Sequence record: NZ_CP092205.1
From: a plasmid
DNA length: 64,000 nucleotides
Strand: one strand, 5' to 3'
Shown here: piece by piece, positions 24,579 through 52,576 of the stretch
How positions within the stretch are numbered: position 1 is the stretch's first letter
How the letters are laid out: each line of letters starts with the position of its first letter
The notes under the pieces: model-generated
The model's database searches: none
What the model was told of the DNA's origin: nothing
What the model saw: only the letters and a program-made list of their open reading frames with translations
Translations under genes and position numbers: made by a program

Positions 24579-24809
24579 TTGCTTTTACCAGCTTGGTCCG
24601 ACTCTAATAATAAAGAGCAAAAAATGGCAGCGACTCCAATTCAAAAAATTCCAACGCTTACAGGCGAAAAAGCAAAACGTTTTATTGAAAGAGCAGACTC
24701 TTCGGAACGTCCGGCTCTATCTATTTCTGAGCAACAAAGAAAAATGTACGCCGCTCTCTCAGAAAAAAATCAACAAAATTCACTTTTTATAGAGGTTCCC
24801 TCCTTTTAA
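24579..24809 (+). CDS. small hypothetical protein (76 aa)
   Basis: ORF in the AT-rich spacer after the tube gene. Weak. Confidence 0.15.
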   Translation: MLLPAWSDSNNKEQKMAATPIQKIPTLTGEKAKRFIERADSSERPALSISEQQRKMYAALSEKNQQNSLFIEVPSF

Positions 24810-24838
24810 TTTCTTATTTTGAAAGAAAGAAAATAGAA

Positions 24839-25366
24839 ATGATAAGAATGTCGCACACTTTAAATAGAATTTGTTTCTCTTCACTCTTGTTTTTAATTTC
24901 TCTATTTTTATTCAATCAATGTAGTTGGATTAATGCTATTGGAATTTTAAACAATACCGATGAAGTCGTTACACTTTCCGTGACCTTTCAAAAAAAGTTA
25001 ACAACAAAAGAATTTTATCGCAAAATCTCACATTCCTCTAACGAATATATAGAGAACTCGAATTTTTTTAGAGTTCCTGCAAACAAATATTTTAGCCCCG
25101 ATCGATTCTCTACAGAAAAGGGAATCAAAATTCCTATTCAAGAAATCTTGTATGACTCCGAAAAAGGAGAATTTCGTTTTGAATTAAAACCTAAATTCGC
25201 ATATTTTTTTGACTTCGCAATAAATGACAGTAATATTATGGATGCTCTTTTTTCTAAAATTGAAATCTCTAGTAAAGATAAACGAACTACAATTCAAAGT
25301 GATAAATTCATTTCATTTTTTCCAAAAAACGACAACTGCAATTGTTTTCTTTTGATCTACAAATGA
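24839..25366 (+). CDS. hypothetical lipoprotein/secreted protein (175 aa), moron candidate
   Basis: N-terminal hydrophobic signal followed by Cys (LFLFNQCSW). Very AT-rich, inserted between tube and chaperone genes. Confidence 0.3.
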   Translation: MIRMSHTLNRICFSSLLFLISLFLFNQCSWINAIGILNNTDEVVTLSVTFQKKLTTKEFYRKISHSSNEYIENSNFFRVPANKYFSPDRFSTEKGIKIPIQEILYDSEKGEFRFELKPKFAYFFDFAINDSNIMDALFSKIEISSKDKRTTIQSDKFISFFPKNDNCNCFLLIYK

Positions 25367-25456
25367 ATTCTTATGAATCTGAGCAAACGAAGGAAATATT
25401 AAACTTTCCTTTTGTACAAGTTTAAAGTCCGAAAACTTTTTTATGGAAGCATTCAA

Positions 25457-26143
25457 TTAAATCCACTCATCTGGTTTTCGATATACGTTTCCAAATAAAT
25501 CATATACTTCACTTGGAAATTGAGAATTATGGATAGCTGAATTCCGAATATCTTTCATAAAATCGCAATTCTTTTTTAAAACTTGGCTCGGGTTTTTTTG
25601 GGGATTAAGATATCCAACTTGTTTTTTAAAATCGTTTCTTATTATTCTAACGGGTTCTAAAAGGTCGGAGTCACCTGAAATTAGAACAGCTACGTCATAT
25701 TCATTTTTGCAAGCATCATACAGCATATGAGTGGCAAGATTAACATCCGAGCCTTTTTCTTCAGTCTTGATTACATTAGCAAATCCTGGGCTATCAGCTA
25801 ATTTCATCTTCACAGTATGGGATAAGAAATGACCGTAATAGACTTCAAAATTAGGATTTGTTTTTAATGCTTTAATATAATTTTGCTGACGATTCAATGG
25901 TCCATTATCATTTTGCCTAGGTTTTACTTCGGCAGTATAATATTTAATTTTTAGAATTTGATGCAAATTGGATGGAAGAAGAATGGAACAGAGTCTGCTA
26001 AAATCTAACCATTTATATTTGGTCCCTTTTACTTTCCCATAGTAAAAGTTGAAGGCATCAATATAAACATAAGTTCTTTTGGCTGTCATAATAAAGCAAG
26101 GGCTACCTCTTTCGAAGTAGCCCCGCGCCCTACGCATTACCAT
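25457..26143 (-). CDS. NYN/LabA-like (PIN-fold) nuclease domain protein (228 aa)
   Basis: YIDAFNFYY near the N-terminus, KGSDVNLATHML, and VLISGDSDL motifs typical of NYN-domain acidic residues. Opposite strand within a low-GC moron pocket. Confidence 0.55.
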   Translation of the reverse strand: MVMRRARGYFERGSPCFIMTAKRTYVYIDAFNFYYGKVKGTKYKWLDFSRLCSILLPSNLHQILKIKYYTAEVKPRQNDNGPLNRQQNYIKALKTNPNFEVYYGHFLSHTVKMKLADSPGFANVIKTEEKGSDVNLATHMLYDACKNEYDVAVLISGDSDLLEPVRIIRNDFKKQVGYLNPQKNPSQVLKKNCDFMKDIRNSAIHNSQFPSEVYDLFGNVYRKPDEWI

Positions 26144-26931: not shown

Positions 26932-26995
26932 AGGGGAATTAAAACGAAAAGAACTTTTAGACAGAATCGATAACGAATTAAAATTCTATGGCTGA
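26681..26995 (+). CDS. alternate-frame ORF overlapping chaperone gene (possible frameshift extension product)
   Basis: In the +1 frame relative to 26284..26931 and extends 64 nt past its stop. Confidence 0.2.
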   Translation: MNQMKILPKGVTHLGNLFLEQKRFILEATARLDIPNLLMRAKLQSQKRQVLKMKPMEFLENISPAMAHILEAEAGYSQDMLTSEGELKRKELLDRIDNELKFYG

Positions 26996-27617
26996 AGAAT
27001 CCTTAAATATAAAAGTCAAGGCAACGCCTGACTTCAAGTCAGTAGAAAAAGAATACGACCGAATTGCAAAAAAGGGGAAAAAAGGAATCCCTGTTTCCGG
27101 TCTTGGAAAAGTGCCCGAGAAAAAGAGATCTTCCAGTGGGAGCGGAAACGGTGGCGGCAGTTCCGAAAAAAAGAAACTCGAAGCGGCATCTCGGTATGCC
27201 GGGGGAAGTGCTATGGCTTCGAAAGTCGGAGCCGATGGATCGGATTTAGACGAAACTCAAAGAGGTGGTTTTTTTAATACTCTTGATAAAAAGATTTCTG
27301 CCGCTCGCGAACTGTTGCGAAAAAAGAAAAAGAAGAAAGACGGCGAAGATGAAGAATCTTCTCCTAATTCGAGTCCAAGTGGAATTGGTCTCACCTCTGC
27401 AAAACAACTTCAACTTCAAAAAGCAGAAATTAAAATTCAACACGCAAATTTTGACAAAGGAGGATTCTCAGGACTTCCGGGATCTGTAGGCGGAGGAGGG
27501 TCGGGAACAGACGGCGGATCAGTCAAAGGAAATAATTTTTCACTGATGGGAGCCGCGATTCCAATCGCCGGAGCCGCTTTTGCAATCGCGGGAGGAGTGC
27601 TACTCATCTCTACGTAA
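26988..27617 (+). CDS. tape-measure-like protein, N-terminal part (209 aa; Gly/Lys-rich, C-terminal hydrophobic helix)
   Basis: Composition. Followed after 116 nt (containing the repeat element) by a second Gly-rich tape-measure-like ORF. Confidence 0.35.
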   Translation: MAEESLNIKVKATPDFKSVEKEYDRIAKKGKKGIPVSGLGKVPEKKRSSSGSGNGGGSSEKKKLEAASRYAGGSAMASKVGADGSDLDETQRGGFFNTLDKKISAARELLRKKKKKKDGEDEESSPNSSPSGIGLTSAKQLQLQKAEIKIQHANFDKGGFSGLPGSVGGGGSGTDGGSVKGNNFSLMGAAIPIAGAAFAIAGGVLLIST

Positions 27618-27695
27618 TAGAGTGTCTAAAATTCTGCGTCTAAACGTGGGATTTGTGCTCAAATTAACGGTACTCTATTTTATAGGGATCAGTAA
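27610..27695 (+). repeat. copy B of ~90-bp repeat with 8-bp internal inverted repeats (AATAGAGT..ACTCTATT)
   Basis: ctacgtaatagagtgtctaaaattctgcgtctaaacgtgggatttgtgctcaaattaacggtactctattttatagggatcagtaaag. Overlaps the stop codon of 26988..27617 and lies 40 nt upstream of 27734. Confidence 0.6.
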
Positions 27696-27733
27696 AGACA
27701 ATCTCCGCAATCGGGGAACAGTATCACGCGGCA

Positions 27734-28798
27734 ATGCAAAGTCAGTCCGGAACAATTGGCGCGACCGGCGGATACGTTGGAGGTGGGGGAGGGTATTTCT
27801 CAAATTCAGAACTCGCACAAGCAAACGTTGCTCGCGGTCGTGTAACAGGTGAAAACATTTTTGGAAAGGGAAACCAAATCGATTCTAAAACAATGCTCTT
27901 TGCCGCTTCTCAAGGAAAAGGAATTGCTGAAGTCGTAAAAGAGTTAGAAACAATTCGAAAAGATTCAAAAAATGCGGACATTAGTTTTCTTCGAGGAGGT
28001 GCTTCGGCTTCCGGATTTCAGGGTTTAAGACAATCCGAATATATCTCAAAACTAGCAACCATTTCTGAAAATTTAAGAGGAAAAGGATACTCGGGAGATA
28101 TAAGCGACTACGCTAAATTCTCAGCCGGTATGCAAAGAACAGACGGAATCAATATGGATCCTTCAAGACGTATGGCATTATCCGAACAGCTTTCCGATCA
28201 AGGAAGACAAGGAGCTTTTGGAGGAGGAGTCTTTGGTTCTCTTTCCATGGCTGAAGCCTTGAAAGCAAATGGAGGAGACGTGATAAAAGCAATTAGGGAA
28301 TCCGAACTAAATCCCGGAAAATATATGTCTTCGGCAATGGGGGGACTCGATGCAACGACTCGCGGACTCGTAAATAAAATGCAAGGCGGAAGTTTTTCCG
28401 AGATTGCAGGAATGAAATTCGGATACAACGACATAAAATTCGATAACTCTAAAATTGACGCAGGATTTAACAAGGGACTCAGTCTTGATAATGCAAAAAA
28501 AGAAACGTTTGCAACCGACGTTGGAGCGCAGGCCGCACAAATCGGTTACGATATGAATAAAGCGATGATCGATTTATTCAACGAAAACAAGGGCGCGATG
28601 AAAAGTTTAGCAACAACAGTCTCAAACATTGAAAAGTCTGTGATTCCAGTTATCTCCGGACAGATCACATCGCTTGTCGGAACAATCGACAAACTTGCAA
28701 AAGGTGATTTTGGCGGGGCACTCGGGGAAATGATGGGAGGTCTTGGAAAACTTGCGACTCTTGCAAACCCCGCCGGTCTTTTGGTACGATCTAAATAG
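27734..28798 (+). CDS. tape-measure-like protein (354 aa; Gly/Ala-rich, helical)
   Basis: Composition and position in the tail module. Confidence 0.4.
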   Translation: MQSQSGTIGATGGYVGGGGGYFSNSELAQANVARGRVTGENIFGKGNQIDSKTMLFAASQGKGIAEVVKELETIRKDSKNADISFLRGGASASGFQGLRQSEYISKLATISENLRGKGYSGDISDYAKFSAGMQRTDGINMDPSRRMALSEQLSDQGRQGAFGGGVFGSLSMAEALKANGGDVIKAIRESELNPGKYMSSAMGGLDATTRGLVNKMQGGSFSEIAGMKFGYNDIKFDNSKIDAGFNKGLSLDNAKKETFATDVGAQAAQIGYDMNKAMIDLFNENKGAMKSLATTVSNIEKSVIPVISGQITSLVGTIDKLAKGDFGGALGEMMGGLGKLATLANPAGLLVRSK

Positions 28799-28839: not shown

Positions 28840-29229
28840 ATGGAAATACATCGTGTCCTTTTTCAGCTTTTCAATAGAACCGGCGTTGCAATCGAAAGAG
28901 AGGTTGAGGAATTCGCTCAAGAATTCCAGGTCCAACAACCTCAAAAACTTACCAAGGCATTTAAACAAACAGACAATCTTGTAACGATCCCGATTCCTGC
29001 AGGGATTCAGTTTAAATACGTTCTCATTCTTGCAACTTACCTAGCCGATGACACAGCGATCGGAATAAAAAAAGACGATCCCGCACCAATTATTGTTCGA
29101 ATCAATGGATCGGCAATCGATCATCCTTTACCGCAAGGGTTTATGGCTTGGACCGGAGGACTTACTTCTTTGAGAGTCGCAACGACCTACGACACGAATC
29201 AAGTTTTAGTAGAAGTTTATTTGGGATAA
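28840..29229 (+). CDS. phage tail hypothetical protein (129 aa)
   Basis: ORF. Overlaps the start of the next tail gene. Confidence 0.3.
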   Translation: MEIHRVLFQLFNRTGVAIEREVEEFAQEFQVQQPQKLTKAFKQTDNLVTIPIPAGIQFKYVLILATYLADDTAIGIKKDDPAPIIVRINGSAIDHPLPQGFMAWTGGLTSLRVATTYDTNQVLVEVYLG

Positions 29230-29817
29230 TGAATTCAGTTTTTGATTTCTTACTAGGAGGGATTGGAAACCAAGTTCGAATCGGAAAGGGTGGTCCTCAA
29301 ATCAAAGGATCCTCTTCCGGTTTGGATATTCGTCTTCCGGATGATTCCGATTTTGGAACTCTGAGAGTTGCCGCGCCTCAGTTTGGAAACGACGCAGTCA
29401 ATCTAGACTGGATCAAAGGGCAAGTTCTTTCGAATTGGAATACGCCCGTTCAATCTTTAGCGGATCTCAGAGCGATTTCTTCTTTCGATCGAAAAGATAG
29501 ACAGATCAGAGAAGTAGAGGATGAACTTGCATTTTATCAATTCGACTTAGAATCAACTGCCGCGGTACCGGATCCGCACGATGTAACTCGAAGTATTGTC
29601 CCCAATGATATTGTACTACCGAACCCTGGTAGATGGTTAAAAACTACAGCTCGTGTACAACAACATTCCCAACTTCTGGGATTAGCCTCAAGCGACGATC
29701 ATCCACAATATCAATTACGTTCTGAAAAAAACTTAATGAATGGATTTCCCGGACTTTCGTAACCACCCAACTAACCACACCTTCCGCTAATTTCAAAAAT
29801 CTGTTAAAATCCTTTTA

Positions 29818-30105
29818 ATGAAAAAACCGAATATCGATTGGCAAAAAGAGTTTGAAGATTTTTCCAAAAGCGGACTTTCCCAGCCTCAGTATTGTAAAGA
29901 AAAAGGGATTAAATATACGACGTTTCGTTACCATTGGGAGAGACGATTAAAAAAACAGGACAAAGACGGCTTTGTAGAAGTGCCTCACTCAGCATTAAAC
30001 GTTAGCTCTGCTTCAGGGTCTGAATTTTTGACTCTAAAAATAGATTCGTCAGGTAAGGCGCATCTTCAAATGAATCTTCAGTTTAGTCTTGGTATATGGA
30101 GCTAA
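29818..30105 (+). CDS. tnpA: IS66-family accessory protein TnpA (95 aa)
   Basis: First small ORF of the IS66 three-gene unit. Confidence 0.7.
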   Translation: MKKPNIDWQKEFEDFSKSGLSQPQYCKEKGIKYTTFRYHWERRLKKQDKDGFVEVPHSALNVSSASGSEFLTLKIDSSGKAHLQMNLQFSLGIWS

Positions 30106-30443
30106 ACCCGGGTAGCAGAAAAGTGTATTTGAGACCTGGGGTCACAGATTTAAGGAAGTCAATCAATACACTTGCGATCATCGTAGAGGGCAGAATGAAG
30201 AAGGACCCATATTCAGAGAGCCTATTTTTATTCTGCAATCGTAAGAAGGACAAACTGAAAATGCTTTATTGGGACAAGAGTGGATTTTGTCTTTGGCAGA
30301 AGAGATTGGAAGAAAGCAAATTTCCGTGGCCGAACACGGAGGAAGAAGTTCAAAAGATTCCCGTGGAAAGATTTCATTGGCTATTGAACGGAATTGATTT
30401 TTTCAAGGAACACAAGAAACTAAAATATCAGAAAGTAAGCTGA
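30096..30443 (+). CDS. tnpB: IS66-family protein TnpB (115 aa)
   Basis: About 115 aa, overlapping tnpA. Conserved RPGVTDLRKSINTLA-type segment typical of IS66 Orf2. Confidence 0.7.
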   Translation: MELNPGSRKVYLRPGVTDLRKSINTLAIIVEGRMKKDPYSESLFLFCNRKKDKLKMLYWDKSGFCLWQKRLEESKFPWPNTEEEVQKIPVERFHWLLNGIDFFKEHKKLKYQKVS

Positions 30444-30485
30444 AACGATTGACTAAAACTTTGTGTTGATTACAACTTCATCATC

Positions 30486-32147
<1,662 letters not shown>

Positions 32148-33141
32148 TCGCTTACGGACTTTCTAATGATCTTGGAAATCCAGGAATACAGCTAGTTTCA
32201 AATGGTTCGATAGTGAGTGTGATTCGCTCTCTTGCGACGGCCGCAAAATCCTATTTTTTACCCGATAAAAACGGAACGATTGCCTTAGATGATCCGTTCA
32301 TCGGTGCGACTGATACGATCAACGGAGCGAAAGGTTTAGTACCCGTTCCACTCATTGCAGACAGAGAACGTTTCTTATCCGGAGACGGAACGTGGAGAAC
32401 AAATTTTGGATCTCTTAAAAATTCAATACTTCAAAATGGATCTTATACCGCCTCCAAATACGAGCGAGTATTGTGCGATGTCTCGGGAGGTAGTATTTCA
32501 ATTACTCTTCCGCTAAGTCCCGATGACAACGTAGTCGTTGGAATTTTAGACATTTCGAATTTAGCCGGAACTCACACGATCACTGTTTTAAGAAACGGCC
32601 AACTGATCGAAGATCTGCCTGAAGACTGGCAATTAGATTTAGACGGTGGATATTGGGAACTTGCCTACTCCGCTCAAAGAGGAAGCTGGTATTTTCTTTC
32701 CATTCCAGCGTATAACAACGTTTCTCCTTCCAGTGGTTTTATCACGGATTCTCCACTTTTTACCGAAACCTCTCTTTCTCCTTCCGCAAGAGCGGTCAAA
32801 CAATACGCCGACACACAAGATTTAATTGTAATTCAAAGTGTTGCGTTAGTCGGCACCATGCAAGAAGGATCCGGGAATGCACCTGTAGGCACTCTTGTAA
32901 AAAACGCTTGGTTTGAAGGAACAACCGACTCGTCCGGTCTTTGTTCGGTTTCTACAGGTCTCGGAAATAATATTTTATCTGTGATCGCTTCCGTCAGTGA
33001 CGGATCCGGGAAATGGTTTTCCATTTCAACATCGGGAGGTGCGAACACACTCTTTTATAACGATTCAGGTCATGTGTCGTTTCAATTCAGTGGGAATCCA
33101 CTCTTTCAAATGCGCGCGGTAAGATTCAAGGTTGAACACAA

Positions 33142-51940: not shown

Positions 51941-52576
51941 ATAACGTGAGTTTCGGCCTAAGAAAGTTTGGGCGAATCGCTCGCGACCGCGCTTTAACTC
52001 AATGTTGCTGCCTACGGTCGCAACATATAATTCGTTTTCGCATTTTGTTATACCGAATTCACGTTAATTTATACGAGACTCAGGTTACGAAAGTAATTAT
52101 CAAAGTTCGCCATAAACAGATGTTGAAGTAAATTGATTGAAATCAAATAATTCGGAAGACTTATTAGCACCTGGAATTCCTGTTGAAGTATCGACACGAT
52201 CAAATCCAGATGCTATAAAAATTTTCGATCCATTAACTAAATTAGCCGTATGTCCCGATCTCTTCGTTTGCATCTGTCCAGACCCTACAACTGTCATACT
52301 TCCTGTATCATATAACTCACAAGAAGAAAGAATAGGAGATCCCGTAAGAATTTGATTCCCCCCACATAATATAATTCTATTTGAGGCAGTAGAGACGGCA
52401 GTATGCCCTACCCTAAACTCACTTATATTTCCTACCGAAGAAAATGTATTCAAACCTGAATCATATAATTCCACTACTTTCGTATTCGATACGAAAGGCG
52501 GAGTTGTTACTTTATAAGTAACCACCCAACTAACCACACCTTCCGCTAATTTCAAAAATCTGTTAAAATCCTTTTA

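Follow-up and report, generated by a model that had tools for sequence, protein, structure and literature searches.

The RUP element of Streptococcus pneumoniae is a nonautonomous unit of ~100 bp that inserts at TA and whose ends resemble those of IS630-Spn1 from the same host; RUP subtypes are defined by their own ends. A TA target that is duplicated on insertion is the signature of the IS630/Tc1-mariner superfamily. The Correia elements (CREE) of Neisseria are MITEs ~100-150 bp long; their terminal repeats measure ~26 bp, their insertion duplicates a TA, and there are hundreds of copies, which are mostly intergenic and sometimes lie in genes or prophages. When transcribed they form a long hairpin. 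Experiments have shown promoters in them, they contain an IHF site, and their transcripts are processed by RNase III; no transposase partner is known for them.

Among bacterial orders, Leptospirales is reported to be the richest in MITEs, with ~154 per genome, by a census whose text describes no individual Leptospira families (Nadal-Molero et al., NAR 2024, PMC11602168). We analyzed 64,000 nucleotides of one plasmid (record NZ_CP092205.1; the whole stretch is called the window below), which contain three copies of a 90-bp repeat. We put at about 90% the probability that this repeat is a nonautonomous IS630/Tc1-mariner-type MITE moved by an IS630-family transposase, i.e., a mobile element. It is a short noncoding unit with terminal inverted repeats and a TA target-site duplication; dozens of copies are dispersed among unrelated flanks, and a related autonomous element, an insertion sequence (IS) with matching ends, occurs in the same Leptospira hosts. 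A MITE-like element had been one of several readings offered by a first-pass annotation of this DNA, together with a portable promoter or leader and a cis-regulatory RNA, and it is the reading that these properties bear out. The kind of element is already known; the family is new or at least not individually described.

Two probes taken from the core (22 and 23 nt, with at most three mismatches allowed) matched the 64-kb window only at three places, against an expectation of 0.00 from 100 dinucleotide-preserving shuffles, so the repeat is real and not a chance resemblance. Independent of the probes, a repeat finder linked the same three copies (family D8; inverted pairs I1 and I2). The three related copies, called A, B, and C here, thus lie where the first-pass annotation had placed them. 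With the flanking TA included, they occupy 16786-16872 (+), 27601-27694 (+), and 58679-58772 (-):

16786-16787 and 16871-16872: target TA of copy A
16788..16870, + strand: MITE copy A, 83 bp, degenerate
27601-27602 and 27693-27694: duplicated target TA of copy B
27603..27692, + strand: MITE copy B, 90 bp
~27603-27626 and ~27669-27692: left and right terminal repeats of copy B
58771-58772 and 58679-58680: target TA of copy C
58681..58770, - strand: MITE copy C, 90 bp

All copies, from the window and elsewhere, were aligned with their flanks. The unit is 90 bp with TA on each side (88-92 bp in the 26 intact copies), and TA stands directly outside both ends in 26/26 of these. The limits of similarity in the alignment set the start of the element at CTCATC or CTGATC and its end at GATCAG. 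A length of 88-92 bp leaves no room for a transposase, so the element is noncoding. The copies fall into two subfamilies that differ chiefly in the right half (...CTCAAATTAACGGTAYTCTATTTTATAGGGATCAG vs. ...CTAAAATTGGCGGTACTCCTTTATGTAGAGATCAG). The terminal inverted repeats are imperfect and ~26 nt long: in the subfamily-1 consensus, TACTCATCTCTACATAATAGAGTGTC agrees with the reverse complement TACTGATCCCTATAAAATAGAGTACC at 20/26 positions, and in subfamily 2 the left and right 26-nt ends match at more than 20/26. The details previously described for copy B are all there, namely the inner inverted repeat AATAGAGTG...TACTCTATT, the motif GCGTCTAAACGC, and TTGTGC-17 nt-TATTTT, but two of them take on another meaning. 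The perfect 8-bp inverted repeat regarded as bounding the core is formed by the inner segments of the terminal repeats, and the real unit is larger; ctacRta and ttatagg(g/a)atcagta, regarded as separate conserved flanks, are present as the outer halves of the ~26-nt terminal inverted repeats.

Copy B had been read as a leader ahead of a tape-measure-like gene starting at 27734. It lies instead within that gene, as indicated by a split PHROG match, by restoration of the open reading frame, and by an empty site in another assembly. The interrupted gene is laid out as follows:

26988..28798, + strand: split prophage tape-measure-like gene (PHROG 3763)
26988-27617: N-terminal ORF, 209 aa, with the last 4 aa and the stop codon supplied by the MITE
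27695 to 28798: C-terminal part, in another frame, with its first ATG at 27734

PHROG 3763 (564 positions) aligns through positions 1-203 with ORF 26988-27617 and through positions 216-564 with ORF 27734-28798. The stop codon of the upstream half is the TAA at 27615-27617, in the left repeat of copy B, and the conserved protein is interrupted exactly at copy B, between ...IAGAAFAIAGGVL and KTISAIGEQYH.... When 27603-27692 and one TA (27603-27694 in all) were deleted in silico, a 572-aa ORF was regained, and the restored protein is 100% identical to an L. weilii protein (P0001). More distant homologues, from phage LalZ_80412 and from L. weilii plasmid NZ_CP092209.1, are single intact CDSs of 560-566 aa.

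The contig that encodes P0001, from the other L. weilii assembly (L035), carries the same prophage, colinear with 16217-41190 of the window at 96.5-99.6% identity, and provides the empty site. There the sequence reads gtgcTAaagaca, and the filled site in the window reads gtgcTA[90 bp]TAaagaca. The two BLAST blocks overlap by 2 bp at a single TA (10614-10615 of that contig) that corresponds to both 27601-27602 and 27693-27694, and the flanks of the empty site are 98.7% identical upstream and 99.6% identical downstream. This filled/empty comparison, which covers copy B only, is an insertion polymorphism between nearly identical genomes, and copy B is therefore a recent transposition with duplication of its TA target site. 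The strain-specific insertion indicates, indirectly, that the MITE has been recently mobile. The close match of the prophages also places the origin of the window in L. weilii or a species very near to it, although look-ups of five window ORFs (among them 17058-17981, 26988-27617, 27734-28798, and 58226-58543) returned no identical protein.

The protein is cut short after residue 205, and since the insert plus TA amounts to 92 bp (2 mod 3), copy B also shifts the frame. The next ATG, at 27734, comes 12 codons after the junction; visual inspection showed no well-spaced Shine-Dalgarno sequence for it, the nearest candidate, GGGGAA, lying ~16 nt upstream. Copy B thus most likely inactivates the tape-measure-like gene. 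In the annotation of this plasmid, 26988-27617 and 27734-28798 should be corrected to the halves of one prophage tail gene, not two genes sharing a leader.

An IS66-family element of 2397 bp, flanked by an 8-bp duplication, breaks a second prophage gene (503 aa in L035). This neighboring gene starts ~430 bp downstream of the tape-measure-like gene, with an intact 129-aa gene (28840-29229) between the two, and the IS66 insertion itself is 964 bp downstream. Copy B and the IS66 insertion together suggest that the prophage is decaying and that in this strain it is probably defective.

The other two copies in the window are older or independent intergenic insertions. Copy A has a 1-nt insertion in its left repeat and a 9-bp deletion that takes the inner part of its right repeat, in agreement with the previous remark that it lacks the right inverted repeat. 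Its neighbors are a DUF3800 gene (15719-16618, -) on one side and the first head-module gene, at 17058, on the other. A scan of IMG/VR turned up two more contigs of this prophage, which were read around copy A; each has one pattern match, and in both the match is copy A. The same degenerate copy in these two contigs and in L035 implies that copy A is an older insertion. An empty site for copy A was sought in an L. stimsonii prophage with a 90% identical protein (L037), where a larger variable cassette meant that the site was not reached, and in LE1-like phages and plasmids (68-70% identity), where the intergenic region was too diverged. Copy C follows an RHS-repeat gene and precedes a Bor-like lipoprotein ORF (58226-58543, -) by 135 nt.

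The element is common in pathogenic Leptospira. Outside the window, the 23-mer GTCYAAAATTYTGCGTCTAAACG was searched for in one genome per bacterial species. Of the 33 exact matches, L. alexanderi L 60 accounts for 31, and L. alstonii and L. borgpetersenii for one each; with a profile made from these matches, more, diverged copies were recovered in the same 8-kb loci. About 10 of the 31 L. alexanderi matches sit inside copies of an IS256-family element, which leaves ~20 with independent flanks. The 94-nt unit matched 28 records of a plasmid collection, all from Leptospira. L. weilii plasmids, each with 3-11 places, matched at 92.6-96% identity (taking the best place in a record); identity was 91.5% in L. 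borgpetersenii and, over the full length, 74.5-78.7% in L. noguchii and L. interrogans. For the two LE1-like phage genomes of the phage collection, the search reported no copy.

The TA duplication points to the IS630/Tc1-mariner superfamily, and L. weilii plasmids contain an element of that superfamily with matching ends. When the MITE ends were compared with L. weilii plasmid pLiSL17 by short-word BLAST, we found lone end matches in inverted pairs ~1080 bp apart. These pairs enclose an IS of ~1082 bp with ends TACTGATCCCTACAAAAAAGAGTACC and TACTGATCCCTATAAAAATGGTACC, also flanked by TA. Five full-length copies were located (L036, 13191-14273 and 18603-19686, and three in L042), all five with TA on both sides; copies or fragments also occur in three L. 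alexanderi loci (L010, L018, and L019) and in plasmid pDO6, and there is no copy within the 64-kb window. The right end of the MITE matches the first end of the IS (TACTGATCCCTACAAAAAAGAGTACC) at 24/26 positions overall and at 17/17 at the tip. Similarity does not extend beyond the ~26-nt ends: nothing in the IS corresponds to the ~40-bp core of the MITE, and the MITE therefore did not arise from the IS by simple internal deletion.

The two ORFs of the IS (163 and 137 aa) match NCBIfam NF033545, "IS630 family transposase", over positions 1-134 and 179-292, respectively (ORF1: 103.7 bits against a cutoff of 100; ORF2: 82.8 bits), and further match Pfam HTH_33, HTH_23, and DDE_3. The partner transposase thus has the HTH and DDE_3 domains of the IS630 family, alongside the TA target and its duplication. 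Between the two ORFs there is a +1 frame change, which in the two pLiSL17 copies falls at an A8 run. This two-ORF layout is kept in 4/5 of the full-length copies, which differ from one another by 3-5%, and such conservation among diverged copies suggests a native arrangement rather than decay. No single-ORF transposase was found among the full-length copies examined, so that activity of the IS would depend on slippage or frameshifting. An IS630-family element named ISLbp6 is recorded in L. borgpetersenii and L. weilii by ISfinder-based surveys (PMC13046281, PMC8558515). Going by family and host species, the partner IS is probably ISLbp6 or a close relative.

The similarity of the ends and the shared distribution make it likely that this IS630 transposase moves the MITE. 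The transposase would bind the MITE ends in trans, with the inner part of each terminal repeat (the stem-forming "inverted repeat" of the first-pass annotation) as its putative binding place. It would then excise the MITE and insert it at a TA dinucleotide, and the target TA would be duplicated on insertion.

A different reading of the repeat is that it serves as a portable promoter or 5' leader: the right end would carry an outward sigma70-type promoter (TTGTGC-17-TATTTT), and copies would be retained where they drive the downstream gene, in the manner of some Correia elements of Neisseria. We consider this quite unlikely. Copies B and C and most members of subfamily 1 do carry the hexamers at the 17-nt spacing, but the hexamers agree with the consensus at only 3/6 (TTGTGC) and 4/6 (TATTTT) positions, or 7/12 together, and matches as good with the same spacer number 1567 on both strands of the window, i.e., ~1 per 82 nt. 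A sigma70 consensus scan (at least 9/12) around copies A, B, and C found no sense-strand promoter, its hit in copy C being an antisense 9/12 match only. Furthermore, the -10 hexamer is lost with the 9-bp deletion in copy A, and subfamily 2 has CTCCTTTATGTAG where it would stand. As for copy B, which sits in a coding sequence, the supposed downstream gene is the 3' part of the very gene that it interrupts.

The orientation of the copies leads to the same conclusion. Each of the three copies in the window faces a co-oriented ORF, which is what the first-pass annotation had noted in describing the repeat as always aimed at the downstream gene; that description is accurate for these three copies and fails for the rest of the family. 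By a crude ORF call over all loci, 27 copies were co-oriented and 9 opposed, and 9 of the 27 are one copy inside a multicopy IS256-family element. Counting only independent copies, L. alexanderi and related loci gave 18 co-oriented vs. 9 (P = 0.12), a mild and nonsignificant excess. The three window copies had prompted the hypothesis and were therefore left out, which reduced the counts to 15 vs. 9 (P = 0.31). In two annotated L. weilii plasmids, counted by unique site, the gene ahead is co-oriented for 4 copies, and 8 copies point at the 3' end of an opposed gene. Outside the window there are thus ~19 co-oriented and ~17 opposed copies (15:9 by the crude ORF call plus 4:8 by plasmid annotation). 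Orientation is random, the very result that the first-pass annotation had said would count against its proposal. The co-orientation of the three window copies is a coincidence. Neither a conserved promoter of consensus quality nor a consistent orientation toward gene 5' ends was found in the family, and with 7/12 hexamers, a -10 hexamer missing from copy A and subfamily 2, and copy B inside a CDS, the portable promoter or leader is not sustained.

A co-transcribed hairpin might alternatively be conserved as a cis-regulatory or structured RNA that acts as an RNase III target, a stabilizer, or an attenuator. The predicted folds are strong, with a long hairpin of -27.7 kcal/mol in copy B (z = -4.4) and -36.9 kcal/mol in a subfamily-2 copy (z = -6.4), and the RNase III processing of transcribed Correia elements offers a precedent. 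We nevertheless regard this as very unlikely. Both strands fold similarly, and the hairpin is the automatic outcome of paired terminal inverted repeats. Copies stand in both orientations to neighboring genes at distances from 15 to ~1000 nt, and copy A has no inner stem. Rfam gave no match at the gathering score over the whole window and none even at E <= 1 in 27550-27750, which, together with the origin of the hairpin in the terminal repeats, speaks against the cis-regulatory RNA suggested for this DNA. A terminator scan around the three copies found no T-run after the stem, so the hairpin is not an intrinsic terminator; the only terminator-like structure in that scan was the small GCGTCTAAACGC stem in copy C.

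Another class of mobile element, either a REP/BIME palindrome with a RAYT transposase or a MITE derived from IS5 (IS427 group), has a negligible probability: IS5-family transposases are frequent on the same L. weilii plasmids and IS427-group elements make short (2-4 bp) duplications, but the duplication here is exactly TA at every intact copy, the only long elements with MITE-matching ends in the DNA examined encode an IS630-family transposase, and REP elements are ~35-bp palindromes without target duplications, unlike this 90-bp unit with its proven duplication, so that IS630 ends, TA duplication, and size largely rule out both origins.

With the repeat read as an IS630-type MITE, one family behind the MITE richness of Leptospira now has defined boundaries, a defined target duplication, and a candidate parent IS, and it has been active recently enough to differ between L. 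weilii strains. For the specialist this is expected biology and no surprise. Elements of this sort can serve as strain-typing markers, give rise to pseudogenes and to misassemblies in draft Leptospira genomes, and are possible, here unproven, modulators of neighboring genes. By analogy with Correia elements, some copies might have been co-opted, through a weak outward promoter at the right end or through a hairpin that changes mRNA stability, and we consider this unlikely. If it were true, insertion polymorphism would tune neighboring surface-protein, toxin-antitoxin, or Rhs genes, and MITE insertions would disable prophages differently between Leptospira strains. A related and equally doubtful possibility is that the two-ORF transposase with its A8 run acts as a programmed-slippage switch for bursts of MITE activity.

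How the family relates to described elements can be stated at several levels. The cMITE/vMITE census (PMC11602168) reports MITEs common to hosts and their viruses, and the pattern here agrees with it, as copies occur both in prophage DNA and in that of the host or its plasmids. Close to the MITE at the ends is the IS630-family IS of pathogenic Leptospira, which shares with the MITE the tip TACTGATCCCTA... (17/17), the repeat (24/26), TA at both ends, and the hosts L. weilii and L. alexanderi. It differs in being ~1082 bp long and transposase-coding, whereas the MITE is 90 bp and noncoding with an unrelated core of ~40 bp. Correia elements resemble the Leptospira MITE in their ~26-nt terminal repeats, TA duplication, and long hairpin, and the Leptospira MITE likewise has a copy in a prophage gene; the two have no sequence similarity, and the Leptospira MITE has an identifiable partner IS and no regulatory activity shown. 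The closest mechanistic parallel to the Leptospira MITE and its IS is the pair formed by RUP and IS630-Spn1, in a different phylum and with unrelated sequence. In contrast to RUP subtypes with their own ends, the subfamilies of the Leptospira MITE differ mainly in the right half.

The same subfamily-2 copy of the miniature IS630-type element (MITE, 88-92 bp, non-coding) lies inside each of about 10 near-identical copies of an IS256-family transposase gene in Leptospira alexanderi (loci L009, L010, L013, L014, L016, L017, L019, L028, L030, and L031), one of which is given as an example:

L010 2035-3123: IS256-family transposase gene with the MITE inside it

The Pfam Transposase_mut match is split in the MITE-bearing gene (positions 47-191 and 235-373). 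The right junction of the MITE is a normal TA junction; at the left, a duplicate of the IS256 sequence GGAATCAATCTACA stands in place of the MITE tip, or, in L028, a 28-nt duplicate instead. It appears that the MITE first became immobile and was later multiplied as the passenger of an IS256 element with a defective transposase. An IS110-family transposase gene holds, between its DEDD and C-terminal domains, a 26-nt fragment that is identical to the left end of the MITE (TACTGATCTCTACATAATAGAGTGTC; minus strand, L024 ~167-192). Removing these 26 nt restores the reading frame of the gene, and the fragment may be what an excision or deletion left behind of a MITE insertion.

The entire gap between the genes of a CopG-family antitoxin and its PIN toxin is made up of a shortened and diverged MITE copy of 83 bp; this copy shares bases with the antitoxin stop codon, reaches the toxin start codon with its far end, and is oriented against both genes. 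It was found at two places:

L036 (L. weilii plasmid pLiSL17) 41658-41740: 83-bp MITE copy
L042 31104-31186: 83-bp MITE copy

In L. weilii plasmids, MITE and IS630 copies also occur frequently in Rhs or polymorphic-toxin regions (pLiSL17 14214-14624; window 59595-63581; L040 and L041). In pLiSL17, an RHS-like ORF is cut in its C-terminal part by one IS630 copy, and MITE copy C of the window lies directly downstream of an RHS-repeat gene. Four copies of the IS630-family partner element, whose ends match those of the MITE, share one ORF layout:

L036 13191-14273: IS630-family partner element
L036 18603-19686: IS630-family partner element
L042 18179-19260: IS630-family partner element
L042 24727-25808: IS630-family partner element

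All four, diverging by up to ~5%, have the same two-ORF layout (160-163 aa, then 137 aa in the +1 frame), and in the pLiSL17 copies the ORFs meet at an A8 run; the plasmid gene tables list none of the four as a CDS. This layout may reflect programmed frameshifting or transcriptional slippage.

The window also carries two copies of an IS66-family element that are 99.96% identical:

29759-32155: IS66-family element, copy 1 (2397 bp)
52518-54914: IS66-family element, copy 2 (2397 bp)

Each copy has a target duplication of its own, 8 bp long (GGACTTTC and CTTTATAA). The transposase gene at 30486-32147 (Pfam DDE_Tnp_IS66, NCBIfam NF033517) contains a 42-nt tandem duplication (30567-30668). The prophage of another L. 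weilii assembly (L035), otherwise colinear with the window, lacks the first copy, which breaks the window homologue of a 503-aa gene in that prophage (L035 12150-13661).

The ATG (17058) of the first head-module gene lies at the centre of a 21-nt near-perfect palindrome (GGGTCTCTATGTCAGAGACCC, window 17050-17070), which the terminator-like scan flags on both strands. The near-identical prophages of the window and L035 are distinguished by a replaced cassette in the stretch that separates the tail tube region from the gene preceding the tape-measure gene. This cassette spans 1308 bp in the window (24778-26086, with a minus-strand ORF of 228 aa at 25457-26143, PHROG 7929) versus 540 bp in L035 (8559-9099, where the ORF is acetyltransferase-like). 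In the L. stimsonii relative (L037), this site is occupied by a minus-strand cassette that is larger still.
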